This document shows positions 2,242 to 30,164 of a stretch of DNA of 64,000 nucleotides, piece after piece. The notes beneath the pieces are model-generated. The model was given only the letters and a program-made list of their open reading frames with translations, was not told the origin of the DNA and ran no database searches. Each line of letters opens with the position of its first letter. Within the stretch, counting starts at the first letter, position 1. A program made the translations under genes and the position numbers. Origin of the DNA: an uncultured Candidatus Saccharibacteria bacterium (GTDB lineage: Bacteria; Patescibacteriota; Minisyncoccia; Phycocordibacterales; CAIRYW01). The stretch covers positions 64,192 to 128,191 of the forward strand of contig CAYUPH010000003.1 of the NCBI GenBank assembly GCA_964446625.1. The letters are read 5' to 3'.

Positions 2242-2371
2242 TTTTTTGTTTGAAGTTAAAAAAGCCTAAGGAGTAAAAAGACTTTTCTCAATCATACCCA
2301 AAAACAGCAAAAAAACAAAAACAACTGCAAAAACTCCCTTTCTTGCTCCTCAAAAAACCCACACCAAAAAC

Positions 2372-2435: not shown

Positions 2436-2457
2436 AGTTTCTGTGGTTTACTTTTGT

Positions 2458-2682: not shown

Positions 2683-2779
2683 ATATTTTTGATTAATTGT
2701 ATAGGCTTCGCATTATATCAAACACCCTTTTTTCTCGCCAGATGTTTTTGATTTTGGTTCTTTTTGGTAAAATAAACAC

Positions 2780-3601: not shown

Positions 3602-3621
3602 AAAAAAGCCTACAAAGTAGG

Positions 3622-4014: not shown

Positions 4015-4111
4015 AGTTTTATGGGTAATGCCACTTTCAATCCTACCTTAGAAGTAAAATTTGTAAATTAACCTCTCTCTTCTTTTTACTTTCCCGCCTC
4101 TGTGTTAGAAT

Positions 4112-5395: not shown

Positions 5396-5470
5396 AAGAA
5401 GAATCAAGATTTAAGAATTACGAATTAGGAATGAAGAGTTGAGAATAAAAAAAGCCGAAGAGTGTAATTC

Positions 5471-9523: not shown

Positions 9524-9772
9524 GTGGAAGAAAACAATATTCCAAAGGAAAAAGAGGTAGAAAAGCCTATAAAAACAAAAGCAGAGCTTATCGCTTTTGC
9601 ATACGACCTCGGTTTTGCAATCATTCTTCCGCTTGCACTTCTCGGCTTTGGAGGCAGATACCTCGACCGTTCACTCGGAACTTCACCCATTTTCCTTCTT
9701 GCAGGACTTCTACTCTCGTTGGTTTCAACTGGAATTATTATTGTTAAAAAAGTAAAAAAATTTAGCCTTTAG
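9524..9772 (+). CDS. atpZ: ATP synthase protein I/AtpZ-like small membrane protein (GTG start)
   Basis: 82 aa, two TM helices with glycine-rich loop (LLGFGGRYLD), immediately upstream of atpB. Confidence 0.55.
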   Translation: MEENNIPKEKEVEKPIKTKAELIAFAYDLGFAIILPLALLGFGGRYLDRSLGTSPIFLLAGLLLSLVSTGIIIVKKVKKFSL

Positions 9773-9777
9773 AATTT

Positions 9778-10635
9778 ATGCATATATCAATCGCAGCAGA
9801 AACACTTTTTCATATCGGCGCTTTCCCTGTCACAAACAGCATGCTTATGGCATGGATTGTCGTTATCTTTCTTTCTGTAACAGTCTTTTTTGTTAGTCGA
9901 AATCCAAAGAAAGTTCCAGGACGGCTTCAAGCGCTTATGGAGCTTATTCTCGAGAAATTTGTTGATTTTATGCAAGTGTTTACTGGCGACAGAGCTCTTG
10001 TAAAAAAATATCTTCCAATTGTTGGAACAATCTTTTTCTTTGTTCTCTTTTCTAACTGGGCAGGAATTTTGCCTGGAGTTGGAACAATAGGTTTTTATGA
10101 AAAACATGAGGAGGAAGCGGTCAAAGAAGTTGTGGACATAGAAGGAGTAGAGGGAAACCCTGCTTCTCCTTCCGAAGTTCACGAAGCCGAAGCTCCTACT
10201 TCAGAGACTGCAGAGCATGAAAACGCTCCGCTTGTACCATTCTTTAGATCTGGATTTGCTGACCTCAACATGACGCTTGCGCTAGCGCTCATTGTTGTGA
10301 TTTCAACACACATCATTGGGTTTGTTTCAATTGGAGTTTCGCACCACATAGGAAAATTCTTACAAAATCCATTCAAAAAACCTATCGGCGCTTTCATTGG
10401 TTTTCTAGAGCTTATTGGTGAAGTTTCAAGAGTTGTCTCATTTTCTTTTAGGCTTTTTGGAAACCTGTTTGCAGGAGAGGTTCTTCTCATGATTATTTCT
10501 TCTCTTGTTCCCTATTTTATTCCGATTCCGTTTCTAGGGCTTGAAGTATTCGTAGGTTTTGTGCAAGCACTCATCTTCTCTACCCTTGCAATGACTTTTA
10601 TCGCAGCTTCAACGCAGCACCACGAGGAGCACTAA
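9778..10635 (+). CDS. atpB: F0F1 ATP synthase subunit a
   Basis: Conserved FRLFGNLFAGEVLL (essential Arg) region; contains unusual acidic ~55-aa insertion (EEEAVKEVVDIEGVEGNPASPSEVHEAEAPTSETAEHEN). Confidence 0.9.
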   Translation: MHISIAAETLFHIGAFPVTNSMLMAWIVVIFLSVTVFFVSRNPKKVPGRLQALMELILEKFVDFMQVFTGDRALVKKYLPIVGTIFFFVLFSNWAGILPGVGTIGFYEKHEEEAVKEVVDIEGVEGNPASPSEVHEAEAPTSETAEHENAPLVPFFRSGFADLNMTLALALIVVISTHIIGFVSIGVSHHIGKFLQNPFKKPIGAFIGFLELIGEVSRVVSFSFRLFGNLFAGEVLLMIISSLVPYFIPIPFLGLEVFVGFVQALIFSTLAMTFIAASTQHHEEH

Positions 10636-10666
10636 ATAAAATTAAATTTAGGTAGAAAAGTAACCG

Positions 10667-10694
10667 GCCGGCGTTCCTCTAGAGGAACGCCGGC
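10667..10694. terminator. perfect 28-bp GC palindrome just after atpB stop
   Basis: gccggcgttcctct|agaggaacgccggc; no clear T-tract, may be terminator/processing hairpin or part of the downstream structured element. Confidence 0.35.
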
Positions 10695-10699
10695 ACAAC

Positions 10700-11795
10700 C
10701 CACCACTGAAAAAACTTTCACTTTAATTTTTGCACGCTTTAATAAAACCGTGCAAGTGGAAAACGAAGTCAGCCCAGTCCCCCGTGTGGGGACTGGGCTG
10801 TGAGCTTTGTTGAATGGGGAATGGGAGCCGCCACCGTGTGTGGCGCTTAGAAGGGGTACGCTCGTCCATTGTATCCTCCTTCGAGGGACTGTGCTCCCAA
10901 TTCAACCAACGAGCTCTAATTAGAGTAATAACATAGATGTATTTACATGTCAATACGTAAACGAAATGAGCCCCGGCCTCCTGCTTGCGCAAGTGACCGG
11001 AGCTCTCCAGAGAGTATTTCGGCGCTAAGTAGGCGTAAAAGCCGGCAGCAGCCCTCTCTGGATTCGGTGAACAAGTTATGGTGTAACCTCCAACCACACC
11101 TTAACCCATCCACCAAAGTGAGAGGACGGAGAACCAAACTTTCCTAAACCAACGGATTGTTAAGTGTTGATTTGCCTAGTTCTCCGCCCAAAAGAGCGAA
11201 AATTGTGAAGTGATATTACTCACATTTTCGCTCTTTGTCAATATAAAATAAATGAGGAAGGTCCCGCCGGCACAGAGTGCTAGCGGGACCTTTTGTTAGC
11301 CACCCTGCTCCGGCGAATCCGACCCTTCGACTCGGTTTGGAGCATGAATGGCTCTACCTTTTGGTGGTTGCATGGCAACCTCTTTCGGCTAACCACCAAA
11401 TTGGGTGGCAGAGAAGCGCACGGCGCCTGATGAAACTCACCCGAGCCCAGCAGACAATTCCATTTTGCCCGCGCTTCTCCGCCAAATTTAAGGCCAAGGC
11501 GACGATTGATTTCCGAAAACCCGTCTAGTTGGGTTTATTTGCTGTTCGTCGCCTTGGCCAAAGCATGAAAACCGTTTATTAGCCTACTCCTTAAGTAAAA
11601 ATAGTCAAATGAAGATGGCCCGGCTGCAGCTGCAGCCGGGCCCCGATTCGAGCGTGCAAAAGCCCCGTTAAGCACCTCGATGTTCCGAGCGGCCAAGCGA
11701 ATGCACACAGGGCCCAGATACCCTGGTGCATTTCCGCTCGAAAGATTAAAAAGCCGCTAAAACTATACATTAAATATACTTAATGTCAAACAGTT
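10700..11795. ncRNA. candidate large structured non-coding element (unclassified) between atpB and atpE
   Basis: ~1.1 kb without convincing ORF, locally GC-rich in AT-rich context, dense in long perfect stems (cagcccagtcccc/ggggactgggctg; ggtcccgccggc...gccggcgggacc-like; ggccaaggcgacg/cgtcgccttggcc; gcccggctgcagctgcagccgggc; ttcgagcg/cgctcgaa; ttggtgg/ccaccaa enclosing ggttgcatggcaacc). Confidence 0.35.
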
Positions 11796-11800
11796 TTCCC

Positions 11801-11829
11801 TTGCGAGAGCCTAAAATTTGGCTTATAAT
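11801..11829 (+). promoter_or_regulatory. sigma70-like promoter for atpE-atpC
   Basis: TTGCGA - 17 nt - TATAAT about 55 nt upstream of atpE ATG. Confidence 0.55.
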
Positions 11830-11885
11830 ACGCGCAAATGACCGAAAGGTCTTATTTATTTGTTTATTAATAATTATAAAAAAAC

Positions 11886-12113
11886 ATGGAAGTAGAAAAC
11901 CTTAAAGTATTTGCAGCAGCCCTTGCTATCGGTGTCGGAGCTCTCGGTCCCGCTATTGGAATCGGAAACCTTGCCGGAAAAGCTATGGAATCAATTGGAC
12001 GAAATCCAGAAGCTGCTTCAAAAGTACAATCAGCGATGATTCTTGCTATCGCCTTTACAGAAGCGATTGCAGTTTACGCTCTTGTAGTTGCCCTTATTAT
12101 CCTTTTTGCTTAG
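11886..12113 (+). CDS. atpE: F0F1 ATP synthase subunit c
   Basis: 75 aa hairpin proteolipid, conserved carboxylate helix ...[20 protein letters not shown]. Confidence 0.9.
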
Positions 12114-17090: not shown

Positions 17091-17378
17091 ATGGCAGAAA
17101 GATTTTCTGCAGATGAAGGCGGATGGAATGAAGTGCAGCAAAAAGCTTTAAAAGAACTTTATTCAGAGAGTGGAGCTGAGACGATAGATGAAAAAATTGC
17201 TGTTCATGAAGGAATTTACGGAAAATCAAATTTTTATGGAACCGCCATTGACCATGAGTCCGATCAGCCTGTTAGTCAGGAATTTGTAGGAAGATTGGTG
17301 GATATTACTGAGGAACAAAAATTAAAAATGCACGAGTATACTTATCTTGAAGGACTTGGTCTTATAAATATTGTCTAA
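17091..17378 (+). CDS. hypothetical acidic protein (95 aa) inserted between atpD and atpC
   Basis: Starts 3 nt after atpD stop and ends 6 nt before atpC; no recognisable family. Confidence 0.45.
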   Translation: MAERFSADEGGWNEVQQKALKELYSESGAETIDEKIAVHEGIYGKSNFYGTAIDHESDQPVSQEFVGRLVDITEEQKLKMHEYTYLEGLGLINIV

Positions 17379-17383
17379 AACAA

Positions 17384-17605
17384 ATGTATCTAAAAATTCA
17401 CACACTAGAAGGAACAAAATTTGAAGGAGAAGTAGATTCTGTTACTTTGCCTGCTTCTGACGGTGAAATTACTATTCTTCCAGGACACATTCCCCTCATT
17501 ACAACCCTATCTATTGGCAATATAAAGACCGCTAAGGAAAGTTTTCCTATAACAGGTGGTGTTGCTGAGGTAGACGACAAGGGTGTCGTTGTTCTCGCAA
17601 GCTAA
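17384..17605 (+). CDS. atpC: F0F1 ATP synthase subunit epsilon, N-terminal beta-sandwich domain only
   Basis: 73 aa; ...ITILPGHIPLITTL... motif; lacks the C-terminal two-helix inhibitory domain. Confidence 0.75.
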   Translation: MYLKIHTLEGTKFEGEVDSVTLPASDGEITILPGHIPLITTLSIGNIKTAKESFPITGGVAEVDDKGVVVLAS

Positions 17606-18643: not shown

Positions 18644-19384
18644 TTATGGCTTTATTATACTTCCAACAAAATTTTTACCGTTTATAAAAGCGTCTGCTTC
18701 TTCAAGTTTGTTTCCGTTTATTATTGCAACCTGAAGTCCAAGTACTTCTGCTTCTTTGCTTGCAATTGGATCAAATGGGCTCGATAGTCCTGGATCCCAT
18801 TTTTTTGGAATTAGCTTCCTGAACTCCTTCCAGTTTATTTCTTCGATTCTTTTTGCATCTTTAAATTCCCGCGGGTCTTTGTCGAAAATATAATCTATGT
18901 TTGTGAGGTTTATGAGTTTCTTTGCTTTAAAGCGCTTTGCAAGGCACACCGAAACAAAATCTGTTGACCATCCTGGTTTCCAGCCAGCACCAATTAAAAT
19001 AGGTTTTGTAAAAGAAACTTTTTTGTCGAAAGGATCATGAATGATTACCTCCTCAACTTTCGGCAAGAAAATAGCCTTAACGAGCTGGGCATTAAGTCTT
19101 GTTGAGTGAATTCCAAGCCAATCGACATCTTGTGGTCTAAGCTTTGTTACTTCGAGGGCTGCGTGTTGGTATTTTCGGCAAATCTTTCCTCCTCCACAGA
19201 CAATCACAAATCGCTTCCCTTTTTTTACGCCATTTAGGACAAAGTCTTTTAGGTGAGATAGAAAACTAGTATTGATTTCTTCTGGGAAAATCATTGATCC
19301 TCCAACCGATATAATCACTACTTCTTTGTTTTCTTTTTTTGTCATGTTAAGGAGTATTCTAACAGAACAAGCCTCTTTTTTCAA
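18644..19384 (-). CDS. pyrH: uridylate kinase (amino-acid kinase family)
   Basis: VVIISVGGSMIF ... IVCGGG ... amino-acid-kinase fold; start may be internal MTKKENK. Confidence 0.7.
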   Translation of the reverse strand: MKKEACSVRILLNMTKKENKEVVIISVGGSMIFPEEINTSFLSHLKDFVLNGVKKGKRFVIVCGGGKICRKYQHAALEVTKLRPQDVDWLGIHSTRLNAQLVKAIFLPKVEEVIIHDPFDKKVSFTKPILIGAGWKPGWSTDFVSVCLAKRFKAKKLINLTNIDYIFDKDPREFKDAKRIEEINWKEFRKLIPKKWDPGLSSPFDPIASKEAEVLGLQVAIINGNKLEEADAFINGKNFVGSIIKP

Positions 19385-19399: not shown

Positions 19400-19936
19400 C
19401 TATTTTCTCAGGACCACGAGCTTTCCGCTCTTTAGGGCAACAATCCGTGAGGCCTTTTTTGAGACCCTTCCACCAAGGTAAAAGTCTACTTTTTCTCCAA
19501 AGTAACTCCGAGCTTCTCCAATTGTTCGCGCGGGTTCAAGTCCTTCAGGGTTTGCGCTCGGTGCAATGAGTGGGCCTGTCTTCTTTAGAAGCCTTAGGAG
19601 TCCTTTTCTTTGCGGGATTCGGAAACCCAGAGTATTCTTTCCTCGATGCAGGTACCGAAACTTTTTTTGAACTCTTGGCATAAGCGGAAGAACAACAGTT
19701 GTTTTTTTTCGAAGAAAAATGCTTTTGTCTTTTGGTAATTCTGCACCGAAGGACACAATGTCCCCTACACTTGAAACCAGAACAAGAACTGGCTTCTCTG
19801 GGTTTCTTTTTTTTAAACCAAAAACCTCTTCTACTCCTTTTACACTTCCTGCGCTTGCAACAATACCGTATATAGTGTCTGTTGGTATGACAGCGACACC
19901 ACCTGCCTTTAAAATCTCTTCAAGGTTATGCTTCAC
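19400..19936 (-). CDS. tsaC: L-threonylcarbamoyladenylate synthase (YrdC/Sua5 family)
   Basis: VIPTDTIYGI and APSANPEG motifs of YrdC domain. Confidence 0.8.
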   Translation of the reverse strand: MKHNLEEILKAGGVAVIPTDTIYGIVASAGSVKGVEEVFGLKKRNPEKPVLVLVSSVGDIVSFGAELPKDKSIFLRKKTTVVLPLMPRVQKKFRYLHRGKNTLGFRIPQRKGLLRLLKKTGPLIAPSANPEGLEPARTIGEARSYFGEKVDFYLGGRVSKKASRIVALKSGKLVVLRK

Positions 19937-21599
19937 AGCTAATGCAAACTTTCTTTCGATTTAGCTCTTGCGCCGCGTTCATGCTGTGCTGGTAGTAAAG
20001 AGTTTTCACACCCTGTTTCCAAGCGTCAATATAAAGCGCGTTAATCTCCTTTGCAGTTGTTGTCTTTGGATTGATCATAAGGTTAAGTGACTGGCTTTGA
20101 TCAATATAGAGCTGACGAGCTGCTGCTTGGTCAACCACTGCGTACTGGTCAATTTCGGCAAATGTTTTAAACACTTCTTTTTCTTCTGGAGTTAAAATAT
20201 CGAGGTGTTGAACTGATCCGTTCATGTCACGAATTGACTGCCAAACTTCTTTTGTGTTTTGTCCTTTACTTTCGAGAAGTTTTTCAAGAAACGGATTCTT
20301 GATTGTTACTTTCATTTTCTCAATATCTTTTACATAACAGTTTGACCACACAGGCTCTACTCCTTGTGATACCTGCCCGAGAATGAAAGCTGACGAAGTG
20401 TTCGGAGCAACTGCCATAGTTGTTGTGTTTCGCATGCCGTAACCCTTTAGAATTTCTGGCTCTCCAAAAAGCTCAGCCATTTCCTTTGAAGCTTTGTAAG
20501 TCTTTTGCTGAATTTCCTTGAAAAGTTTTACATTGAGAATCATTGCTTCTTGGCTATCAAAAGAAAGCATTTTGCTCTGTAGGAGTGAGTGCCATCCTAG
20601 AACTCCAAGTCCAAGTGCTCGGTTTTCTTTTGCAAAACGATACGCCTTTTCCATAAAAAGGAATTCCTGTCTTTTATCTTTTGCTTCGTGGTCTCGCCTC
20701 CACTCTAGTTTTTCTATAAACTCTGTCATAACTGCGTCGAGGAAGTAAGTCAAAGTCTCTACTGCATCGGTGTCTTTCCATTCGTCGTAGAAAAGAGCGT
20801 TTATTGATGAAAGACAGCACACAAATGACCAATCTTCGTTTGAAGGAAGTGCAATTTCGCTACAAAGGTTACTTGCGTACACCTTAAGGTCTTTGTCTTT
20901 GTATACTTTTACAGTGTTGTTGTTTACATTGTCAGTAAACATGATGTATGGGTATCCAATTTCTGTTCGTCTTTTAATTATTTTTGCCCATATATTTCTT
21001 TTCTTCTCATCACCAGCAATCATTTCTTCCATCCACTTATTTGTCACTGTAACAGCATTGTTAAGTCCTTGGATTTTGTTTCCTTCTGTTCCAATATCCA
21101 AAAACTCTTCTATGTCTGGGTGTTCAACTGGCATATACGCTGCAAGGTGTCCGCGTCTTGTTGAACCTTGAGACACAACATCAGTCATAACATCAAAAAG
21201 TTGCATAAAGTGTACTGGGCCAGAAGAGTATCCGTTGTTGGTAATCTCTGCTCCACGAGGTCGAAGCGCTCCAAAGTACGCAGATGTTCCTCCTCCCATT
21301 TTACTCATCATTCCAACCTCTGCGTTTGTAAACAAAATATCTCCCATTGTGTCGCCGAGGTACGAGCCAAAGCAACTAATTGGAAGACCTTTTTTTACTC
21401 CAAAGTTTACCCAAACAGGTGTCGAGAGTGAGTAGTATCCTTTTTCCATGTAGCCATAGAACTTGTCGGCGTAGCCTTTGATTCCAAGAATTTTTTCGGC
21501 GTGATCAGCGATAAATCGAATCCTCTGTTCAGGAGTTGAACCATCGTTAATATAATCCTTTGCTAAAAATTTTCTGCTGTTTTCGTTGAGCCAGTGCAT
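19926..21599 (-). CDS. nrdA: class I ribonucleoside-diphosphate reductase alpha subunit, short form without ATP-cone
   Basis: 557 aa; active-site NLCSEI..., C-terminal Cys pair CISCEA; no N-terminal ATP-cone. Confidence 0.85.
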   Translation of the reverse strand: MHWLNENSRKFLAKDYINDGSTPEQRIRFIADHAEKILGIKGYADKFYGYMEKGYYSLSTPVWVNFGVKKGLPISCFGSYLGDTMGDILFTNAEVGMMSKMGGGTSAYFGALRPRGAEITNNGYSSGPVHFMQLFDVMTDVVSQGSTRRGHLAAYMPVEHPDIEEFLDIGTEGNKIQGLNNAVTVTNKWMEEMIAGDEKKRNIWAKIIKRRTEIGYPYIMFTDNVNNNTVKVYKDKDLKVYASNLCSEIALPSNEDWSFVCCLSSINALFYDEWKDTDAVETLTYFLDAVMTEFIEKLEWRRDHEAKDKRQEFLFMEKAYRFAKENRALGLGVLGWHSLLQSKMLSFDSQEAMILNVKLFKEIQQKTYKASKEMAELFGEPEILKGYGMRNTTTMAVAPNTSSAFILGQVSQGVEPVWSNCYVKDIEKMKVTIKNPFLEKLLESKGQNTKEVWQSIRDMNGSVQHLDILTPEEKEVFKTFAEIDQYAVVDQAAARQLYIDQSQSLNLMINPKTTTAKEINALYIDAWKQGVKTLYYQHSMNAAQELNRKKVCISCEA

Positions 21600-21651
21600 A
21601 ATGATTTTCTAGTTGTTCTGTTAGTTTAATAATTTCCCTTCCCTATTCTCT

Positions 21652-22920
21652 TTAAAACAAATCGTCTCCAGTGATACTTTCAACTCTTTTGTTGTAATTG
21701 ACAGATCGTTTTACAAAGAAGTCGAGGTGCTTTGTTGTCATGATTTCGTCGTTAAACCATTCAGTCTCCTCGAGAAGTTTCTCGTCAATTGTAAAGAGTT
21801 TCTTGAATCCAATTGCTGAAAGTGAGTTATTGAATCGGTTTTTGATGAACTCAAGAACTGTAGCTTTTGAAAGGAACGGAATCTCTCCTTTTTCAAAAAT
21901 CCAATCTACAATTGCCTGCTCTGCTGCAAATGCCTCGTTGCATAAATCGTACACAGACTGCTCGTACTCTTCTGTAAACCACTCTGGGTGTTCTGTTTTA
22001 ATAATTTTAAGAAGGTCGATACCAAAGAGTCCGTGAATTTGCTCTTCTTTTGAAGTCGCTTCAATAACATTCGACATTCCTCGGAAGAGTCCTTTGAACT
22101 TGTTGAAGGACATGATGATGAGGAATTGTGAAAACAGCGACACATGTTCAATAAACAAAGAAAAAAGAAGAAGTGTTCGAGAATAATCTTTGTGATGATC
22201 AGAATGTGCGTTTGCAATCGCCTTTTCAATATAGTTGATTCGGCTAATGATTGCAGGAACCTCTTTGATTTTTTCGAATTCAGCATTTAGTCCAAGGATT
22301 TCAAGAAGGTGCGCGTAGGCGTCTTGGTGACGCACTTCACTTTCTGCAAAAGTTGCTCCCACAGCACCAACTTCTGGCTTTGGAATTTTTTTGTAAATGT
22401 CTCCCCAAAAAGTTTTTACAGACACTTCTACTTGAGCAATTGCGAGCATTGCATTTTTGAGAGCGTTTTTCTCTGCTTCGCTTGTGTTGACGAGGTAATC
22501 GTGAATATCAGAAGTAAAATTAAACTCAGTGTGTAGCCAATATGAGTGACGAATTCCGTCTACATACTCCAGGAGCTCTGGGTACTCATAAGGCTTTAGT
22601 GCTAGTCGCTTCTTAAAGATGTCTCGCTTTCGAAGTTCTGCCTGTTTCTGTCTGTAGAGGATATACGCCTTTGCAGTCGCGTGTAGTCCTGAGTCCATGA
22701 GCGCAAATTCTACTTGATCCTGAACACCTTCAACTGTTGGTGTACTGTCTCCAAACTTTTCTTCAAGATTTTTGATGGCAAGGTCTGTAATTTCAGAAAT
22801 TTTTTGCTTTGAAGCTTCTTCTCCAGTTGCAACGCACGCTTTTCTAATAGCTTCTTCGATTCGAACTCGGTCGAATTCGACAATCGAACCATTTCTTTTT
22901 ATTACAAGTTGTATTGCCAT
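21652..22920 (-). CDS. nrdB: ribonucleotide reductase beta (R2) subunit with N-terminal ATP-cone domain
   Basis: N-terminus VIKRNGSIVEFDRVRIEEAIRKA...AKAYILYRQ (ATP-cone) fused to ferritin-like R2 core (iron ligands in ...EAIH.. / ..EEQIHG.. regions). Confidence 0.8.
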   Translation of the reverse strand: MAIQLVIKRNGSIVEFDRVRIEEAIRKACVATGEEASKQKISEITDLAIKNLEEKFGDSTPTVEGVQDQVEFALMDSGLHATAKAYILYRQKQAELRKRDIFKKRLALKPYEYPELLEYVDGIRHSYWLHTEFNFTSDIHDYLVNTSEAEKNALKNAMLAIAQVEVSVKTFWGDIYKKIPKPEVGAVGATFAESEVRHQDAYAHLLEILGLNAEFEKIKEVPAIISRINYIEKAIANAHSDHHKDYSRTLLLFSLFIEHVSLFSQFLIIMSFNKFKGLFRGMSNVIEATSKEEQIHGLFGIDLLKIIKTEHPEWFTEEYEQSVYDLCNEAFAAEQAIVDWIFEKGEIPFLSKATVLEFIKNRFNNSLSAIGFKKLFTIDEKLLEETEWFNDEIMTTKHLDFFVKRSVNYNKRVESITGDDLF

Positions 22921-23062
22921 AAATTGTTTGGATTATCTCTTATAATTTTTTCTTTAAGTTTCTAGCCAATATATTTTACATTAAAATGACTGAGTCTTAA
23001 AGAGTGGAAAACTATAAAATTCGCCATCAAGACACAGAGAATATCTTAATGCAATACCGAAG

Positions 23063-24430
23063 CTACTCCGGGTCAAAAATAGAAGGCGAAAATAGCTCTC
23101 CTGCAAGAAGTTTTGCAACTTTCCACCCACCATAAATTGATGGCATGAGTCCAACACCGTTACACCCAAGGTTATAAAAGAGATTATGATCTTCTTTTTC
23201 CGGACCAATGAGTCGAATACGGTTTTTTGTGTAGCCCATGAGTCCGTGCCAGCTAAAAGTGTGCTCTATTTTTTTGTTCGGGTGCAGTTTGTAGGTTTTT
23301 TTCACAAAGCTGTCTATCTCGCCAATGATTTCGTGTGTAAGGAGTGCTTTTTTGTCATACAAATGTTTCTGTTCAACAAAATTCCCGGGGCCTCCAACAG
23401 AAATAAGGTTGTGCTCCACTCCCTTTTCGTATTCATATTGCCTTCGAGTCAGATAAAAGTAGTTTAATTCGTCGCTCGCAAGCCCAGTATCTGGGTTTTG
23501 AATGTAACTTATCGCAATCGGCGGTTTATTCATCTTTTCAAGGTAAGCAGACATGTAGCCAATATATCCTTCGAGGTTCTCGTGGAATTTTCTGTTAATA
23601 GAAAGTCCGCCTTTTGCAAATATTTCAATATGCTCGAAGCCGTTCGTACAAAGAACAACATCGATTGCAGTGATTGTGTGGGTTATGGCGTCCAAAATCC
23701 CATAGTTTTCTTCCATTACTATTTTTTTAATCGGTGTTTTCTCAAAAAGTGTAAATCTCTCCGGATATTTTCGAGACAAATAGTCTGCAATTTCATTACA
23801 AATGAGCGCACTGTTCGCACACCCCTTCTGTGAAGACAAAAGCGCAACATAGCTGTCGTCAGTTGTTTCAAGACACTCCATAATTTTTTCGCGAGCTGTA
23901 AGTTCATAAAGTCCCGCGTACTTTTCAGGAATTTCGCGAAGGAATTTTGCATCGTCTGCAATTTGTAATCTTTCAAAGTTGATTTCACCTTCCTTTCGAC
24001 AACGATTATTTTCAAGACACTCCAGAACATGCTGATACCCAGTAAGTCCTGTGTAGCCAGTAAAGCGAGCAACAGGAATATTTAGTCCAGCTTCTGTGTA
24101 CATAAGGTCAAAAAGAGCCCATGTTTCCTCAATGGCTTTTTGACCTTCGGTTGCCATTTTTACTCCGAACATTTCAGCAATTTCGTAGAGTTGCTTTTCA
24201 AAATACGTCACCATGTGTCCCCCGTTGTGCCCTGAAGCCCCATGCGCAACACGGTCTGCGTCTACAAGAACAACATTTTTGTCTGTCTCTCGTAGTATAA
24301 AAAAGGCAGTTGAGATACCTGCAATACCAGCTCCCACGATGACAACATCAGTACTTACATCTTCTGTAAGTTTTTTTGCTTCTCTTTGAATGTTAAGCTG
24401 ATGTATCCAAGGGGAACGATTTTCGTGCAT
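23063..24430 (-). CDS. FAD-dependent oxidoreductase (DAO/glycine-oxidase-like)
   Basis: N-terminal dinucleotide fold VVIVGAGIAGISTAFF. Confidence 0.75.
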   Translation of the reverse strand: MHENRSPWIHQLNIQREAKKLTEDVSTDVVIVGAGIAGISTAFFILRETDKNVVLVDADRVAHGASGHNGGHMVTYFEKQLYEIAEMFGVKMATEGQKAIEETWALFDLMYTEAGLNIPVARFTGYTGLTGYQHVLECLENNRCRKEGEINFERLQIADDAKFLREIPEKYAGLYELTAREKIMECLETTDDSYVALLSSQKGCANSALICNEIADYLSRKYPERFTLFEKTPIKKIVMEENYGILDAITHTITAIDVVLCTNGFEHIEIFAKGGLSINRKFHENLEGYIGYMSAYLEKMNKPPIAISYIQNPDTGLASDELNYFYLTRRQYEYEKGVEHNLISVGGPGNFVEQKHLYDKKALLTHEIIGEIDSFVKKTYKLHPNKKIEHTFSWHGLMGYTKNRIRLIGPEKEDHNLFYNLGCNGVGLMPSIYGGWKVAKLLAGELFSPSIFDPE

Positions 24431-24478: not shown

Positions 24479-24931
24479 TTAGGCTGCTGCGAGGAGCGGA
24501 GGTGGTTTGGAACCTCTGCTGTAGTCCATAAAGACCCGAATCCCTCTCTGCGCAAGTAGATGCAGGATACTCTCGGCGAGCTCAGGGACAGAAAATAGTG
24601 TAGACGGCCGATGAATAGTAACTGTCATCGATCCAGTTTTCCCTGTTTCGTAAACCGCATCTATCCACAGAAGCAGTTCGTCACACTTCCCCTTAACTAC
24701 TTGCAGGGGCTCCAACGGGTTGCGAGAAGACCTGTTTCCTAAGCCGGTCTCATTTATAATGATTCCGGTTGCGCTCCTAAGGTCCCTTCTTGCGAAAACA
24801 ACAGGAACATACAAATAGACTTGCTTTCCTGTGATTTGCTTATTCGGGAATTCTTCCGGCTCACAAAGACCCGAAAGTCTCACAAGGGTTTCGCGAGCTA
24901 AAAGCTCGATGGCTGTTGCTTGTTTCTTCAT
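24479..24931 (-). CDS. hypothetical protein, GC-rich, member of 3-gene paralog-like cluster
   Basis: 150 aa; GLCEPEEFP motif resembling FCxVxxxMPCxP of neighbours. Confidence 0.45.
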   Translation of the reverse strand: MKKQATAIELLARETLVRLSGLCEPEEFPNKQITGKQVYLYVPVVFARRDLRSATGIIINETGLGNRSSRNPLEPLQVVKGKCDELLLWIDAVYETGKTGSMTVTIHRPSTLFSVPELAESILHLLAQRGIRVFMDYSRGSKPPPLLAAA

Positions 24932-25010
24932 CTACCAAAATAATACAACATTTAGTATAAAAAGTAAACAAATAAAAAAACTCCTAGGAAACCCTAGGAG
25001 CCTAATTGTG

Positions 25011-25439
25011 TTATTTGCCCCAAAGCAGATTTGCTAGCTTCGGAGTAGGAACTAGAATGATATCCTCCTCTCCTTCCTGCCCTATCATTTGCATCTCCAC
25101 GAAGCCCTCTAGGACCAGCCTCATGAAGCCGTGTGAAAGAGCAAGAAAGTCATCAATCCCCAATTCCACAAGCGGGATAGCTGCATGATGGTCAACTTCT
25201 TTTCCGAGCGCACCTTCCCTCCACTGGAGCTCCAGGTGTCTCAAGAAAGTTGTCACAAGAATCCCTACCCACCTTCCCTTGTCACAGGAGAAGTGAACTA
25301 GCTCTTCTGCTATGTAACATGCCTCCTCTGATAGTGTGGCGTGTGGACGAGGAATCTTGCGTCCAGCAAGTTTTTTGGGCTTGCAAGGCATTTTTGACAG
25401 CACTTGGCAAAAGCCGTCAGCAATTAAAGGATTTGCCAT
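25011..25439 (-). CDS. hypothetical protein, GC-rich paralog B
   Basis: 142 aa; GFCQVLSKMPCKP ... LVPTPKLANLL, paralogous to 25507..25911 product. Confidence 0.5.
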   Translation of the reverse strand: MANPLIADGFCQVLSKMPCKPKKLAGRKIPRPHATLSEEACYIAEELVHFSCDKGRWVGILVTTFLRHLELQWREGALGKEVDHHAAIPLVELGIDDFLALSHGFMRLVLEGFVEMQMIGQEGEEDIILVPTPKLANLLWGK

Positions 25440-25506
25440 AAAGAACAGGCGCTATTTTACAATATTTTTGCGAGATTTCAATAAAAAATCCCCAGGCGTT
25501 GGGGAG

Positions 25507-25911
25507 TTATGTGAGAGCTGCTTGCTGAAGTAGAGTCCCCACAAGTTTGGCAGTGGGAAAGTAGAAGACTCTACCCTCAAGGAATGATAGTTCTACCCAC
25601 CCTTCCCTTGTAAGTGTAATCAGTTGAAGTTCAACGATGACACCTTCGGCTTGACTTCGTGAATCTTTGAAGAGATGTTCTGCTGAAACTCCTACCCAGA
25701 ACCCCTGAGCCCCGGAGTTGGATAGTAGTCGAACTACTGCTACAACTCCAGGTATTGCACAGGCAAGGATAGTTCTCTCCAAATCTTTGCCGAGGATGTC
25801 TTGAGGGGTGCAGGGCATTTCTTCTGCAACAGTGCAGAAGTCTCCGCCCAGATAGGAATGATTTGTCATAAAGAGCGTTTGAACTCTACAACACTTTTGA
25901 GAGGATTTCAA
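25507..25911 (-). CDS. hypothetical protein, GC-rich paralog C (possible roadblock/LC7-like)
   Basis: GDFCTVAEEMPCTP ... IPGVVAVVRLLSNSGAQGFWVG ... YFPTAKLVGTLL; true start may be internal MTNHSY. Confidence 0.5.
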   Translation of the reverse strand: MKSSQKCCRVQTLFMTNHSYLGGDFCTVAEEMPCTPQDILGKDLERTILACAIPGVVAVVRLLSNSGAQGFWVGVSAEHLFKDSRSQAEGVIVELQLITLTREGWVELSFLEGRVFYFPTAKLVGTLLQQAALT

Positions 25912-26238
25912 TTACTCGTCTCTGTTTTCTCTTTCCTCCATTTCTCGGTAGCAAATTTCTTTATAGCCAGTGTTGCATATGTCGAGTATTTCGCTCTCAG
26001 AAAATCCGGAGATTTTATAAGCTGACTCATTATTTTCATCCATAAGTGCAACCGTGTATGTTCCATCTTCTTCCCTTTTTAAACCATAGAGGCTCACCCA
26101 CCCAATACCAATTCCCTCTTTGATTTCAGGTACTGTTTTTAAATCTGGTGGAGTTTCATCAAAAGTGCCTCTAGGAAAAAAGTAAGTTTCTAGTAGTTCT
26201 TCTATTTTACTTCGGTGTTCAGGTTCTTTTTCGCTCAT
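25912..26238 (-). CDS. hypothetical acidic protein (108 aa)
   Basis: Intact ORF, AT-rich codon usage like host. Confidence 0.4.
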   Translation of the reverse strand: MSEKEPEHRSKIEELLETYFFPRGTFDETPPDLKTVPEIKEGIGIGWVSLYGLKREEDGTYTVALMDENNESAYKISGFSESEILDICNTGYKEICYREMEERENRDE

Positions 26239-26738: not shown

Positions 26739-28622
26739 TTAAGATTGCCATTTATCCAAGAGATTAATAGTTTGACTTACGGGCTGATTTTTTCTATTTG
26801 AAATTTTACCAACTTTCATTACAACTGGGATTTGAGCAAGCAAGCCAGCAAGAATACATGTACCAGTTGCTAGGTTTGGAATTGAATCAGCAGATACCTT
26901 ATCCAAATAGGCAATTGTTTTTTCAACAGCCAATAAATCATTATTATTAATAAGTCTGTGTAGAAAATAATTATGAAGTTGTGAAATGATTGTCGGAGAT
27001 ATATCTGAAGGTCTTTGACTTGAAATAGTAAGGAATGTACCGAACTTTCTTCCTTCTTTAATAATCTCCTCAAATGTTTCCAATCTGTAATCTTTCCATT
27101 GCTCACTCTCACGTTGAGAACTACCAGATAGTATATTGTGAGCTTCATCAATAATTATATGTAGCGAATTTTCCTTATTATTACTAGATTTTTTAGTATC
27201 ATAAAGCTCCTTACAAATAAGTAGAGGTAGCATTTTTCTAATATCCAAGTTTACATCCTTTAGGGATATAATAGTAAGATTTTTAACAAACCTTTCTCTT
27301 CCTTGCACTGAAATAACCTTTTCCAAATCAAGAACCCTTTTTTCCATTCGCTTGATTAATGGAGAAAGATGTTCACGGTTTGAAAAACCTCTAATCATTT
27401 CATCATAATATTTTATAATAATTCTGACTCCAATTTTCTTAATACCCGATAATAATGAAACATCAATAGTTTCAATTGAATTAATGGTGTCTTCGATTTT
27501 TACAGCAAATGTTGGCGAATCACTATAGATTTTATCTGATAGGCCAGACTTTAGGTAAAAACTAATATTCTCATTGCCACCAAATAAATTCCCTTTAAAA
27601 TAATCTCCGGCTAATTTAAGGTCATTATTATCCAAAAAAGAAGCTAATTCATAAAGTAAATCTACAGTTAGTGACCTATCAATATTTTTTCCACTAATTG
27701 AAGTCGCAGCTTTTATTTTCTCTATAATCAACCCTTTAAATGATTCATCAGTATTTATTCTAGATTCTATGTAATAATCTTTTATTGCCCTATTTATAAA
27801 TGGAATCTGAGTCTTTTCTGTAGCTTCAAGAAAGATTGACCAGAAACTTACATCTTTTAAGGTCTCCTTTTTTATAGGAAACCTATCATCTCCCTCATCT
27901 GTGCTAGTTGAAAGTTTATATACATTTTTATATTTTTTTTCAATTATCACATCATCGTCAGCATATTCGCCATTAAAATCAATCATAAAAAACTTTGCTT
28001 TTGACTTAAAACTGGCATTGTCTTTAAATTTCTTAAACAATTCTCTAAATAATTTTGCCAATGTGTATGATTTTCCACTTCCTGTGTTTCCAAAAATTCC
28101 GATATGACTAGCAAATAAACTATTAATACCTAAATCAATTCTCTGCCCATCATCGTAAGCTAATGTACCAACCTCGATTCTCTCATCTCCTTTTTGTATA
28201 AAATTGTGGATTTCTTCAAACTCCTCCTTGCGTAATAAAAAACACTTATTATCAATAAGGGGTAATTCCTTAATACCTCTGTAAAATGAACCGTCCTCAA
28301 TAAAGCCGAGTATTTTGACGTTTAAAATTCTATTTATCTTTTCTTTATTACTCTTATAACTTGTTTTAAGATAGTCCCTATCTTCAGTGATTGACTCTCC
28401 TTCAATTTTTCCAACCATCTCTAAAAAACCTTTTTTTATTTTAATGTATCCACCCACAAAAATATTTTGGATTATGTCTCCTTTATATAAAACTGAAGAA
28501 GTATTTTTTCCCTTATCAACTTTAATTTTAATTGATTGCCCCTCAACAGCAAAAACTACCCCAATTCTAAATATTGAATTATCAACAATATGTGTTCCGG
28601 TATTATTTTCCAGTATTTTCAT
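26739..28622 (-). CDS. herA: HerA-like (FtsK/HerA superfamily, DUF87) ATPase, partner of SIR2 in SIR2-HerA defence system
   Basis: 627 aa; N-terminal HAS-barrel-like region, Walker A GIFGNTGSGKSYTLAKL, Walker B LHIIIDEAHNIL; 6 nt downstream of SIR2 gene. Confidence 0.8.
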   Translation of the reverse strand: MKILENNTGTHIVDNSIFRIGVVFAVEGQSIKIKVDKGKNTSSVLYKGDIIQNIFVGGYIKIKKGFLEMVGKIEGESITEDRDYLKTSYKSNKEKINRILNVKILGFIEDGSFYRGIKELPLIDNKCFLLRKEEFEEIHNFIQKGDERIEVGTLAYDDGQRIDLGINSLFASHIGIFGNTGSGKSYTLAKLFRELFKKFKDNASFKSKAKFFMIDFNGEYADDDVIIEKKYKNVYKLSTSTDEGDDRFPIKKETLKDVSFWSIFLEATEKTQIPFINRAIKDYYIESRINTDESFKGLIIEKIKAATSISGKNIDRSLTVDLLYELASFLDNNDLKLAGDYFKGNLFGGNENISFYLKSGLSDKIYSDSPTFAVKIEDTINSIETIDVSLLSGIKKIGVRIIIKYYDEMIRGFSNREHLSPLIKRMEKRVLDLEKVISVQGRERFVKNLTIISLKDVNLDIRKMLPLLICKELYDTKKSSNNKENSLHIIIDEAHNILSGSSQRESEQWKDYRLETFEEIIKEGRKFGTFLTISSQRPSDISPTIISQLHNYFLHRLINNNDLLAVEKTIAYLDKVSADSIPNLATGTCILAGLLAQIPVVMKVGKISNRKNQPVSQTINLLDKWQS

Positions 28623-28628
28623 TTATGT

Positions 28629-29675
28629 CTATACAACTTCTTCAACAAGGTCATTTTGACCAATAATCGGACCAAAAATATCTTTATTTAATGTTTCAAA
28701 ATTATATTTCCTTCCATCTTCTGGTACCACAATTTTAATATTTTTATTTTTTGCTTCGTTTTCCATTTTCTCAAAAATTACCGATTTGCTTCCATGTGCA
28801 AATATGTATATTTTTAATGTTGGATTTGATGCGGCCACCCGAGTGGTCATATCCCTAATATGTTCATCGGCTAATGAAGATCCAATAACAAACAATACAC
28901 TATTTTCTTTTTCTAATTCATTTGAATATATCCTCAATAAGTCATAATAGTACTGTTGAAGAAGTGTGGTTTCATATTTAGCCTTCGTCGGATTCACGAT
29001 AACAAGCTTCTTATAGTATTTATCGAATTCATCACCATCTATCTTGTCAGCAACATCTCTAACATTCTGTAGATTCTTGTCTAATGAGATTACAGCCTCA
29101 TTTCCTATCTCATCAAACTTCCAAGTTAATGATCCGTGAATTTTAAGTATATTAAATACGGGTATTTCAGATGTGTTTTCATAATGAAGACTTTTCATAA
29201 AATATGATTTTTTAAAATTACCTAGATTGAATGTTGGATTAAATCTACCATTGAATCCATCATTGAATTCTATCCCTGTCCCTTCCAACGCCTTTTCAGA
29301 AAAAATATCTATATTTGTCGTAAATATATTTACTTGTTTAGTTAGAATAGAATTTTCTCTTTTTAGAACCAAATTATTTAATATTTTGTAAAAATTCGTA
29401 TAATTAGACATAACATAGTCTTTGTCTACTTCTAAAACATCATCCAATACCTTAATATTTCCTAACATAACTTTATTAAAATACTCTTTTTTCTTACTCA
29501 AGATTTCTTCACTTGTTTTAGATGTATCAGATAAAAAGAGCTCGATATCATTAAGAGTATCAAGAAAAGGCTTTGAAAGACCCGCACCTATCAAAAAGTT
29601 AATATTTGCACTGTCAATTGTTTTCTTTATATCTCTGAGAAGCGGTGTGTAATTAGACATATGTTGATTATGCAA
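28629..29675 (-). CDS. SIR2-family (DUF4020/SIR2_2-like) NAD+-utilising protein
   Basis: 348 aa; NINFLIGAGLSKPF Rossmann/NAD motif, TTNIDIF (Asn), KIHGSLTW (catalytic His), VLFVIGSSL C-terminal motif. Confidence 0.8.
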   Translation of the reverse strand: MHNQHMSNYTPLLRDIKKTIDSANINFLIGAGLSKPFLDTLNDIELFLSDTSKTSEEILSKKKEYFNKVMLGNIKVLDDVLEVDKDYVMSNYTNFYKILNNLVLKRENSILTKQVNIFTTNIDIFSEKALEGTGIEFNDGFNGRFNPTFNLGNFKKSYFMKSLHYENTSEIPVFNILKIHGSLTWKFDEIGNEAVISLDKNLQNVRDVADKIDGDEFDKYYKKLVIVNPTKAKYETTLLQQYYYDLLRIYSNELEKENSVLFVIGSSLADEHIRDMTTRVAASNPTLKIYIFAHGSKSVIFEKMENEAKNKNIKIVVPEDGRKYNFETLNKDIFGPIIGQNDLVEEVV

Positions 29676-30076: not shown

Positions 30077-30091
30077 TAAGTTTTTCTACGG

Positions 30092-30164
30092 TGGACCCTA
30101 GCGGATTCGAACCGCTGACCTCCTCAGTGCAAATGAGGCGCTCTACCAACTAAGCTAAGGGCCC
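30092..30164 (-). tRNA. tRNA-Ala (anticodon UGC)
   Basis: GGGCCCTTAGCTTAGTTGGTAGAGCGCCTCATTTGCACTGAGGAGGTCAGCGGTTCGAATCCGCTAGGGTCCA; cloverleaf folds, G3:U70 Ala identity pair, GTTCGAATC T-loop, CC encoded. Confidence 0.9.

Follow-up and report, generated by a model that had tools for sequence, protein, structure and literature searches.

A predicted class Id ribonucleotide reductase with an ATP-cone on the radical-generating subunit in a Patescibacteria-type genome

The genes nrdB and nrdA found in the window (i.e. the whole 64-kb stretch of DNA analysed here) very probably encode a complete class Id aerobic ribonucleotide reductase (RNR) of a Patescibacteria-type host, which exhibits the beta-cone regulation published for Leeuwenhoekiella blandensis; we put the probability of this reading at roughly 0.8. 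It is an ordinary, intact RNR of a known type. Publications from 2018-2021 already cover the architecture, the structure and the allosteric mechanism of this type, and the arrangement with the cone on beta was first described and structurally solved in 2018. A single locus of this kind carries little weight alone, and its modest value lies in what it reveals about the distribution of this architecture in Patescibacteria.

Both genes are located on the minus strand. nrdB (21652..22920), an ORF of 422 aa plus stop, is predicted to encode the class Id radical-generating subunit (NrdBi) and comprises an N-terminal ATP-cone (residues 1-100, 22621..22920), a ferritin-like R2 core with the dimetal site (residues 106-379, 21784..22605), and a C-terminal tail (residues 396-422, 21655..21735), which ends with ...NYNKRVESITGDDLF and appears disordered according to the pLDDT values. 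After a spacer of 52 nt (21600..21651) follows nrdA (19926..21599), an ORF of 557 aa plus stop, predicted to encode the minimal class Id catalytic subunit (NrdAi) devoid of an ATP-cone. The two RNR reading frames of the original prediction, NrdA of 557 aa and NrdB of 422 aa, were recovered exactly at their predicted positions. Since the spacer contains neither an ORF nor a terminator-like site, we infer that nrdB and nrdA are co-transcribed.

A Pfam search of NrdB detected the ATP-cone (PF03477) at residues 5-94 (22639..22908; E 1.5e-21, 77.2 bits compared to a cut-off of 25.8), with the match extending over positions 2-87 of the 88 in the profile, and Ribonuc_red_sm (PF00268) at residues 106-379 (E 1.6e-58). 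The proposed fusion of a cone at the start of NrdB to an R2 core is therefore confirmed, and the possibility that a profile search might find no cone in the N-terminus of this protein can be dismissed. The other possibility, that a separate ORF upstream of nrdA might harbor an unrecognised ATP-cone, was dispelled by six-frame searches of the 64-kb window: the search with the NrdB cone itself yielded no second ATP-cone (next best E > 0.5), and a profile of 150 diverse ATP-cones matched solely the NrdB cone (next E > 0.5). In the AF2 model of NrdB (pLDDT 76.8) a canonical cone is followed by a helical bundle; the cone consists of a beta-hairpin (strands 5-7, 13-15) with helices 18-32, 38-56, 63-76 and 80-98 after it, modeled with block pLDDT values of 79-95, i.e. 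it exhibits the hairpin "roof" and the four-helix bundle of the fold.

Ten residues of the cone (K8, R9, F16, E71, K84, Y86, I87, Y89, R90 and R97) are invariant among 45 homologues and also among 120 homologues, with the exception of Y86 (119 of 120). They align with L. blandensis K11, R12, F19, E76, K89, Y91, I92, Y94, R95 and R102, respectively, and NrdB D68, M75 and L88 align with D73, M80 and I93 (we number L. blandensis residues by subtracting 3 from the 5OLK chain index). Functions have been reported for D73, M80, K89, I92, I93, R95 and R102 of the L. blandensis cone, e.g. R102 touches the gamma-phosphate (PMC5794259). Because the 120 homologues show little or no variation at the nucleotide-binding residues (K8, R9, F16, Y86, Y89, R90 and R97), the NrdB cone probably binds ATP and dATP, with two nucleotides per cone. 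Judged from the substitution rates, the cone is under purifying selection (dN/dS 0.10-0.18 versus the relatives L001 and L002), and it evolves faster than the core (pN 0.16-0.21 vs 0.08-0.09).

The published beta4 interface of L. blandensis involves M80, I92 and I93, the pairing of D73 and of an Asp numbered 76 with K89, and the D73-R95 pair (PMC5794259). The equivalents M75, I87, L88, D68, K84 and R90, as well as the intradomain pair D68-R90, are kept in NrdB, so most of the cone-cone interface residues are conserved. The acidic pair that follows D73 in L. blandensis is E76-D77 in the 5OLK numbering (chain index minus 3). E76 corresponds to the invariant E71 of NrdB, and D77, which sits near the published salt-bridge positions, is replaced by F72 in NrdB and by I, L, E, V or K elsewhere in the family. 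Among all the signature residues examined this is the one exception to conservation, and because this position is variable, the exact tetramer interface may differ from that of L. blandensis.

The six metal ligands of the R2 core (E, ExxH, E, ExxH) are all present as E165, E195/H198, E258 and E293/H296, corresponding to E170, E200, H203, E263, E298 and H301 of L. blandensis, and NrdB K169, W172, Y202 and T289 correspond to K174, W177, Y207 and T294 of the same site (PMC6754362). All ten residues are invariant across the 120 homologues. Class Id beta subunits are characterized by a Tyr/Glu pairing, in which Glu instead of Asp serves as the first ligand and the Tyr at the radical position is retained (PMC8463856, PMC6754362), by a strictly conserved Trp in helix B with, in the characterised subgroup, a Lys three residues upstream (PMC6754362), and by a Thr that forms a hydrogen bond with the Tyr, keeping it off the metal (PMC6754362, PMC8463856). 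NrdB possesses all these features: E165 with Y202, K169 located three residues before the helix B W172 (in ...EVSVKTFWG...), and T289. The subclass, for the determination of which an alignment of metal ligands had been suggested, is class Id (NrdAi/NrdBi), as the Tyr/Glu pairing, the Lys and Trp signature and the Thr partner show, with a dimanganese centre predicted from the characterised homologues.

Database comparisons agree with this assignment. A phmmer search of the PDB with NrdB retrieved 5OLK over residues 3-422 (E 8.2e-164), and the next matches were all class Id beta subunits (6SF4, 8DQ3 and 6CWO); a Foldseek search with the AF2 model also returned chains of 5OLK as the top matches, over ~395 columns that include both domains with the cone. 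The earlier assignment to class I RNRs is thereby refined, with both the signature residues and the top-scoring structures pointing to class Id. The pLDDT of the model is low, at 48-66, across residues 100-140, which comprise the linker and the initial helices of the core, and drops below 50 in residues 396-422. In this tail, which aligns with ...NYSKRTQSITSDDLF of L. blandensis, residues Y409, D420, L421 and F422 are invariant among 45 homologues. Tails of class I beta subunits are disordered and contain a conserved Tyr (PMC8463856), and that of NrdB is presumed to be the alpha-binding and radical-transfer tail.

In NrdA, the Pfam search identified the Ribonuc_red_lgN domain (residues 4-71) and the barrel domain, and found no match to PF03477 in the full 557 aa. 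The stop-to-stop frame of nrdA (segment 19929..21608) opens only 3 codons before the ATG, therefore a hidden N-terminal extension is impossible, and the absence of an N-terminal ATP-cone from alpha, as stated in the original prediction, is corroborated. NrdA scores 767.5 bits with TIGR02510 (NrdE-prime; cut-off 602.25), and its matches in the PDB include the class Id alpha subunits 6DQX (E 5e-219) and 6DQW (E 5.9e-176). By motif we located the three active-site Cys, the Asn and the Glu residues, the Tyr-Tyr pair and the C-terminal redox Cys pair, at positions C76, N244/C246/E248, C261/C262, Y535/Y536 and C552-x-x-C555, which we take, from the known motifs rather than an alignment, to be equivalents of E. 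coli C225, N437, C439, E441, C462 and Y730/Y731. The length of NrdA, 557 aa, compares with a clade median of 564 aa (PMC9669993). No other RNR-like ORF was found in the 64-kb window.

Following the published mechanism of beta-cone regulation (PMC5794259, PMC8350387), we propose that NrdA would function as a minimal catalytic subunit, equipped with the active-site cysteines, the Tyr-Tyr radical transfer pair and the C-terminal CxxC and lacking an overall-activity site, with substrate specificity regulated, as in characterised homologues, via a site on alpha. The dimanganese centre of NrdB would, by analogy to its homologues, be oxidised by superoxide to Mn2(IV,III), and this centre, not a tyrosyl radical, would start the thiyl radical in alpha. 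Overall activity would be sensed on beta, by binding of ATP or dATP to the N-terminal cone. With ATP, beta would be dimeric and form the active alpha2beta2 complex; with dATP, cones from two beta dimers would pair via helices 3 and 4 into a beta4 tetramer, which would trap alpha dimers in non-productive alpha2beta4 and alpha4beta4 complexes and thereby turn off dNTP synthesis. The metal identity, the nucleotide binding, the oligomeric switch and the regulation of substrate specificity are all transferred here from characterised relatives, and the published account of the beta4 block of radical transfer is itself low-resolution (PMC8350387). The original prediction had likened the arrangement to an experimentally described one, with allostery via R2 oligomerisation; its counterpart is L. 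blandensis NrdB (PMC5794259), whose structure 5OLK is the best match in both sequence and fold.

The closest known systems are NrdAi/NrdBi of L. blandensis (5OLK, 6SF4, 6SF5; Rozman Grinberg et al., eLife 2018, PMC5794259), which share with the window proteins the N-terminal cone, short linker, R2 core and disordered tail, a cone-less alpha of ~560 aa, the metal ligands, the K/W/Y/T signature, the nucleotide-binding residues of the cone and the hydrophobic cone-cone interface. They differ in the host (Flavobacteriaceae versus Patescibacteria-type), in sequence (identity to L. blandensis NrdB of 42% in the cone and 65% in the core), and in details of the cone, which in the window protein has an N-terminus shorter by 5 residues and lacks 2 residues of the loop joining helices 1 and 2; besides, L. 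blandensis possesses an additional class II enzyme, whereas no second RNR was found within the 64-kb window. The class Id enzymes of Flavobacterium johnsoniae, Actinobacillus ureae and Aggregatibacter (beta 6CWO, 6CWP, 8DQ3; alpha 6DQW, 6DQX) belong to the same subclass in both subunits, with a minimal alpha (6DQX being the match quoted above) and the Tyr/Glu, Lys and Thr signature (PMC8463856), but their betas (chains of 343-348 aa, aligning to NrdB 97-422 only) have no ATP-cone and therefore no cone-based overall activity regulation. NrdB of Facklamia ignava (Grx, ATP-cone, NrdBi; PMC6187632) is also a class Id beta with the cone directly before the core, but possesses an extra N-terminal glutaredoxin domain, whereas the window NrdB starts with the cone and has two Pfam domains only. 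In class Ia/Ic enzymes with an alpha cone (E. coli, P. aeruginosa 5IM3, human) the same sensor domain responds to dATP with formation of an inactive oligomer, and in P. aeruginosa the cone likewise accommodates two dATP and pairs via helices 3 and 4 (PMC5794259); in these enzymes, however, it is the catalytic subunit that carries the cone, the genes are ordered alpha-then-beta and the cofactor is Fe2-Y or Mn/Fe, in contrast to the cone on beta and the beta-then-alpha order in the window.

Two further architectures were considered and rejected. A class Ib NrdF with a C-terminal cone (Meiothermus type) disagrees with the N-terminal position of the cone and with the score of 47 bits for the NrdF model TIGR04171 (cut-off 355). 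A Grx-ATP-cone-NrdB fusion (F. ignava type) disagrees with the Pfam results, which place the start of the cone at residue 5 and contain no match to a Grx domain; the bifunctional Grx/NrdB model NF009398 matches the core only (residues 107-417, 90.8 bits, cut-off 649).

With regard to the mechanism, the main alternative is that the cone is functional but acts through a quaternary mechanism other than the L. blandensis beta4, e.g. a different cone-cone geometry, a contact between cone and alpha, or an NrdD-like modulation of substrate binding. ATP-cones yield many different inhibited oligomers across RNRs (PMC11226230), and both the mere 42% identity of the cones and the replacement of D77 by F72, at a position variable in the family, leave room for such divergence. 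We nonetheless regard it as unlikely, given that the hydrophobic core (M75, I87, L88), the salt-bridge partners D68/K84 and the D68-R90 pair are conserved and nearly invariant, that the core domain and the alpha-binding tail are conserved too, and that F. ignava NrdB, a homologue at a comparable distance, is described as belonging to class Id and having a functional cone (PMC6187632, PMC6754362). It is very unlikely that the cone is vestigial or degenerate and senses no nucleotide, so that the enzyme would lack control of its overall activity, as does the class Id of F. johnsoniae: the Pfam score of the cone, 77 bits, is three times the cut-off, K8, R9, R90, R97, Y86 and Y89 vary little or not at all among the 120 homologues, dN/dS is well under 1, and the hairpin and the four helices are confidently folded in the model. 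This outweighs the precedent of degenerate cones, e.g. in class Ib NrdE, where the cone is truncated (PMC9669993), and the faster evolution of the cone relative to the core.

Even less likely, in our opinion, is a cofactor other than Mn2(IV,III), i.e. an Fe2-tyrosyl radical (class Ia) or Mn/Fe (class Ic). The identity of a metal deduced from sequence is never certain and NrdB does have a Tyr at the canonical radical position (Y202), but it is paired with a first ligand that is Glu, not Asp, a combination typical of class Id (PMC8463856), and is accompanied by the invariant Lys169, Trp172 and Thr289, which hold the Tyr off the metal and attract superoxide. Models and structures of classes Ia, Ib and Ic score far lower, as illustrated by TIGR04171 (see above) and by the class Ic structure from C. 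trachomatis (E 1e-14). Finally, the fusion of cone and core could be an artefact of assembly or gene calling that merged a stand-alone cone protein with nrdB, considering that the source is evidently a metagenome-type assembly and that an internal duplication is obvious in P0009 (568 aa), a related protein from the database. The chance of this is negligible, as an uninterrupted cone-core ORF is present in 80 of 80 independent genome loci and the same fusion occurs in all 120 protein clusters among the matches listed and in the crystal structure 5OLK. The L. blandensis-type class Id enzyme hence remains the preferred reading.

In the literature a beta-borne ATP-cone is viewed as rare and mostly flavobacterial. 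The protein search with NrdB returned at least 8000 matches at E <= 1e-20, and both the cone and the R2 core are present in 120 of 120 among the matches listed. A narrow pattern scan revealed relatives in 349 stretches of species-representative genomes, from which the best 80 loci were kept for comparison; 68 of these are titled as Patescibacteria-group. In all 80 the order is beta-then-alpha, with the cone-bearing nrdB directly followed by a cone-less nrdA. This agrees with a rule from the literature, by which beta bears the cone where the beta gene comes before the alpha gene (PMC9669993). The beta-borne cone is a common RNR layout in Patescibacteria. The description of the arrangement as rare consequently holds for RNRs overall and for cultured organisms (93 RefSeq sequences, 2018), but not for metagenomic Patescibacteria, in which it is abundant. 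A full-text literature search retrieved no paper naming the candidate phyla radiation together with the ATP-cone. A manganese RNR that is gated by dATP and activated by superoxide would be physiologically relevant for reduced-genome symbionts that rely on salvaged nucleotides.

Class Id RNRs require O2-derived superoxide, which the beta subunit needs for the assembly of its Mn2(IV,III) cofactor, and to our knowledge no dedicated activase exists for this class. In published surveys, none of the class Id operons had an NrdI nearby (PMC8463856). A DAO-family FAD-dependent oxidoreductase (23063..24430; PF01266, E 2.4e-27) is encoded on the same strand 142 nt upstream of nrdB; it reached no specific NCBIfam family, and we treat it as a mere candidate for membership in the RNR system. 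In 4 of the 80 loci a homologue of it is encoded no more than a few kb from nrdBA, and of 4 reverse look-ups only 1 placed such a homologue near an RNR. In 11-15 of the 80 related Patescibacteria loci, a small PNPOx-like FMN protein is encoded directly after nrdA. It is distinctly improbable that a neighboring flavoprotein, the DAO-type enzyme here or the PNPOx-like protein in relatives, serves as the class Id oxidant source, analogous to NrdI. Such recurrent neighbors offer a cheap lead on the in vivo oxidant for cofactor assembly. A milder possibility is that a Patescibacterium with a reduced genome has this beta-regulated class Id enzyme as its sole RNR, which, if true, would be in conflict with an observation of 2018, namely that a cone-bearing NrdB is in every organism accompanied by another RNR.

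Downstream, the stop of nrdA overlaps by 11 nt with tsaC (Sua5-YrdC; 19400..19936, minus strand), whose identification rests mainly on Pfam because the NCBIfam model TIGR00057 scores 104.8 bits, under its cut-off of 123.2, and tsaC is followed by pyrH (18644..19384, minus strand; Pfam), an archaeal-type UMP kinase according to TIGR02076 (pyrH_arch, 170.5 bits, cut-off 158). Both are genomic context only, and this pair follows nrdA solely in the closest relatives, L001 and L002.

The gene for the beta, radical-generating subunit (nrdB, 21652..22920, minus strand, 422 aa) is followed, after an AT-rich spacer of 52 nt, by the gene for the alpha, catalytic subunit (nrdA, 19926..21599, minus strand, 557 aa); both ORFs lie where the original prediction had placed them. 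Pfam searches revealed an ATP-cone (PF03477) at residues 5-94 of NrdB, scoring 77.2 bits against a cut-off of 25.8 (E 1.5e-21), and a small-chain RNR domain at residues 106-379 (E 1.6e-58). NrdA comprises only the all-alpha N domain (residues 4-71) and the barrel domain, and does not match PF03477, i.e. the cone resides on beta and not on alpha. An N-terminal extension of nrdA encoding a hidden cone can be rejected, as the frame is closed three codons upstream of the ATG, and so can a stand-alone cone gene between nrdB and nrdA, as the spacer contains no ORF. Six-frame searches of the 64-kb window, carried out both with the NrdB cone as a query and with a profile of 150 diverse ATP-cones from all RNR classes, returned the NrdB cone only. 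The original prediction had named the lack of a cone in NrdB and a separate cone upstream as the observations that would speak against it, and neither was found.

Comparisons with proteins of known structure place the pair in class Id. Residues 3-422 of NrdB align to the crystal structure of the ATP-cone-bearing beta subunit of Leeuwenhoekiella blandensis (PDB 5OLK, chain A) with E 8.2e-164. Next in the ranking come class Id beta structures without exception (6SF4/6SF5, 8DQ3, 6CWO/P/Q, 8DQ4/5), with class Ic and Ia proteins matching only at E 1e-14 or worse. An AlphaFold2 model of NrdB, built on 45 homologues (mean pLDDT 76.8), exhibits a confidently folded cone (hairpin 5-7/13-15, helices 18-32, 38-56, 63-76 and 80-98), a low-confidence region at residues 100-140 corresponding to the linker and the first core helices, a helical bundle core, and a disordered tail (residues 396-422). 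The top Foldseek matches of this model are the four 5OLK chains, aligned over ~395 columns that span both domains.

The signature of the NrdBi/class Id subunits consists of Glu instead of Asp as the first metal ligand with the Tyr retained, a strictly conserved Trp in helix B, preceded by a Lys three residues ahead in the characterised subgroup, and a Thr hydrogen-bonded to the Tyr (PMC6754362, PMC8463856). The alignment of metal ligands proposed in the original prediction shows that NrdB possesses all these features: the ligands are E165, E195/H198, E258 and E293/H296, and the remaining signature residues are K169, W172, Y202 and T289, each numbered exactly five below its L. blandensis counterpart. 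Those signature residues that were checked column by column are invariant among the 120 homologues listed from the protein search. NrdA in turn aligns to alpha-chain structures, 6DQX at E 5e-219 and 6DQW at E 5.9e-176, and passes the NCBIfam equivalog TIGR02510 "NrdE-prime" with 767.5 bits against a cut-off of 602. Its catalytic motifs, PISC76, SN244-L-C246-S-E248, C261/C262, TLY535-Y536 and the C-terminal C552-I-S-C555, contain residues that we take to be the equivalents of E. coli C225, N437/C439/E441, C462 and Y730/Y731. The locus is a class Id RNR with a beta-borne ATP-cone, a kind that is already known and structurally solved, and the earlier interpretation as a class I enzyme with the cone moved to beta, an experimentally described arrangement, stands.

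The cone of NrdB is 42% identical to that of L. blandensis and the core 65%. Several residues to which the 2018 structure (PMC5794259) assigns a role are conserved in the window protein, namely the gamma-phosphate contact (L. blandensis R102, window R97), the intradomain salt bridge (D73-R95, window D68-R90), the hydrophobic cone-cone core (M80, I92 and I93, window M75, I87 and L88) and the inter-cone salt bridge (K89, window K84). The K-R pair of the cone hairpin is also kept, and an alignment of 45 sequences shows K8, R9, F16, E71, K84, Y86, I87, Y89, R90 and R97 to be invariant. The exception is L. blandensis D77, an acidic residue at a neighbouring position, which is replaced by F72 in the window cone and is variable across the family; apart from this one variable interface position in the cone, no tested feature departs from the class Id family, and the pair has both its architecture and its conserved residues. 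Against the two closest genomes, with which NrdB shares 85% (L001) and 81% (L002) identity, the cone dN/dS amounts to 0.10 and 0.18, respectively; these values are rough, with synonymous sites near saturation, but nevertheless indicate clear purifying selection on the cone.

From the enzymes of L. blandensis and F. ignava (PMC5794259; PMC8350387; PMC6754362) we infer the metal identity, nucleotide binding and oligomeric switch of the window enzyme. In beta, superoxide would oxidise the dimanganese site, and the resulting stable Mn2(IV,III) state would start radical transfer to alpha. Substrate specificity would be set by alpha and overall activity by beta. With ATP in the cones, beta would remain a dimer and form the active alpha2beta2 complex; with dATP, the cones would pair via helices 3 and 4, and the beta4 so formed would take up alpha dimers into alpha2beta4 and alpha4beta4 complexes, which are non-productive.

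The closest loci carrying such an NrdB come from MAGs titled Candidatus Saccharibacteria, Paceibacteria, Parcubacteria or Nomurabacteria, and the nearest, L001, has atpD, atpC, a gene for a DAO-family FAD oxidoreductase, nrdB, nrdA, tsaC and pyrH in common with the window. Among the 80 best loci kept from the genome search, 68 bear titles of the Patescibacteria group; the other 12 are five Erysipelothrix MAGs, Paenibacillus pini, Halalkalibacter oceani, three archaea-labelled MAGs and two unclassified MAGs. In all 80 a cone-bearing nrdB is directly followed by a cone-less nrdA, which fits the published rule that cones are borne by beta where beta precedes alpha (PMC9669993). In that paper the insertion of an nrdB gene into an nrdA with a cone is proposed as the origin of this arrangement. 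The protein search with NrdB gave at least 8000 matches at E <= 1e-20, and both domains are present in 120 of 120 clusters among the matches listed, one of which has L88I as its only difference from the window protein. The arrangement had been called rare, which holds in that it is unusual among RNRs but not for environmental Patescibacteria, given the 68 of 80 best loci and the thousands of protein matches. We also queried a 50%-identity library with the junction (NrdB residues 1-141), which gave 6 matches at E <= 1e-30 and, counted from the table, a few dozen junction-spanning matches in the best 150. This count was dropped as a measure of the abundance of the fusion, because strong conservation of the cone-NrdB family leaves only a few clusters at 50% identity. 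Full-text literature searches turned up no paper in which "candidate phyla radiation" occurs along with "ATP-cone", nor any joining "class Id", "ribonucleotide reductase" and "Patescibacteria". How common the layout is among Patescibacteria is a lead past the known story.

No second RNR-like gene and no NrdR were found within the 64-kb window. It is possible that Patescibacteria have no RNR other than the class Id enzyme, which, if true, would contradict a remark of 2018 that a cone-bearing NrdB is always accompanied by another RNR in the same organism. In some relatives a second RNR is present a few kb from the class Id operon (L042, L069, L073), consistent with that remark. In L042, a minus-strand frame of 760 aa (1353-3632, ~9656-11935 in plus-strand coordinates) has an ATP-cone match and a TNPCGEI motif, and judged by eye appears class II-like, while the Erysipelothrix MAGs (L069 10379-12922; L073 4474-6981) possess distant homologues of the RNR large subunit in frames of 836-848 aa. 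Archaea-labelled MAGs (L007 ~3089-5611, minus strand; also L010 and L017) contain, near the class Id operon, a stop-to-stop frame of 841 aa that, judged by eye, starts with an NrdR-like zinc ribbon (MKCPFCGSSELKVIDKR...) and looks to continue into an anaerobic NrdD.

The searches also returned several unusual domain combinations. A database protein of 1019 aa (P0174) contains an ATP-cone, R2 (Ribonuc_red_sm) and R1 (lgN and barrel) in one polypeptide. It is a class Id-like RNR in which beta and alpha are fused, or else an artefact of gene merging. In another (P0142, 554 aa) two tandem ATP-cones are joined to a PRK/uridine kinase domain (PF00485, E 7.5e-22); according to the literature the ATP-cone is essentially confined to RNR and NrdR, and P0142 falls outside both. 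Intein-like insertions occur in class Id subunits (L064, P0138, P0146, P0151): the NrdA of Paenibacillus pini (L064 7255-9936) has a ~290-aa insertion between residues equivalent to 282 and 244-557, and several cone-NrdB proteins of 737-817 aa have split R2 matches, one with a Hint domain (P0138, P0146, P0151).

nrdA is followed, in the same direction, by tsaC/Sua5-YrdC, a gene for an archaeal-type UMP kinase and one for a metallophosphoesterase; tsaC overlaps the nrdA stop by 11 nt. The DAO-family gene (23063-24430, minus strand) is located 142 nt upstream of nrdB on the same strand. Superoxide is required to assemble the class Id cofactor, and no activase is known for this step (PMC8463856); we therefore tested the linkage of this flavoprotein to nrdBA. 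A homologue was found within a few kb of nrdBA in only 4 of 80 loci, and the reverse look-up found an RNR near 1 of 4 DAO homologues sampled, this being a different class I type with the cone on alpha, located 2.7 kb from the DAO homologue in L082 (6001-7383, 10053-13383). The DAO family is large, widespread and well conserved (~50-58% identity across 120 clusters among the matches listed), with named members in Paceibacterota and related groups, and the window protein reaches no specific NCBIfam family. The link is too weak to claim the flavoprotein as a functional partner.

A gene for a small FMN-binding protein of PNPOx type (PF01243, E 1e-11) comes directly after nrdA in ~11 of the 80 loci and lies within a few kb in 15 (e.g. 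L006 8967-9335, L010 8977-9450, L012 5227-5649, L022 9046-9444, L065 6102-6494), in flanking contexts that vary between loci; the window contains no homologue. This protein is a candidate operon member and possible oxidant supplier, more suggestive as a flavoprotein partner than the DAO gene product. Such recurrent flavoprotein neighbours, as candidate oxidant suppliers, offer another lead past the known story. In 34 of the 80 loci (e.g. L008 5275-5790, L077 2-670) nrdB is directly preceded, in the same orientation, by a DUF192 (COG1430) gene that the window lacks.

In the 142 nt upstream of nrdB, inspection by eye found one AT-rich near-palindrome (AATATATT) without matching flanks, and an NrdR box was rejected. 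A promoter/terminator scan gave 13 promoter-like sites against 13.1 expected by chance and 7 terminator-like sites against 6.2; the putative promoter TTAAGA-16-TAAAAT (23000..22973) upstream of nrdB is only suggestive.

Overall, the window is ordinary bacterial chromosome, with genes for YchF, YceG, AdoHcy hydrolase, an F-type ATP synthase operon, UvrABC, Ddl, Tgt and GDH. Between atpD and the ATP synthase epsilon gene, in the region 17091-17605 (plus strand), is a 95-aa ORF without Pfam match, for which L001 has no homologue, although it has homologues of both atpD and atpC; epsilon itself is very short (73 aa), presumably without the C-terminal helical domain. Four successive small ORFs (150, 142, 134 and 108 aa; 24479-26238, minus strand), without Pfam match or homologue in the 80 related loci, lie where GC is higher (0.449), flanked on one side by the DAO gene and on the other by a low-GC island (0.30-0.32 vs ~0.40) that adjoins tRNA-Ala (30090-30164). 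The island encodes a SIR2_2-domain protein (348 aa, 28629..29675, minus strand) followed by a HerA/DUF87 ATPase (627 aa, 26739..28622, minus strand), and the two resemble an anti-phage defence pair of the SIR2-HerA kind, apparently carried by an integrated island.
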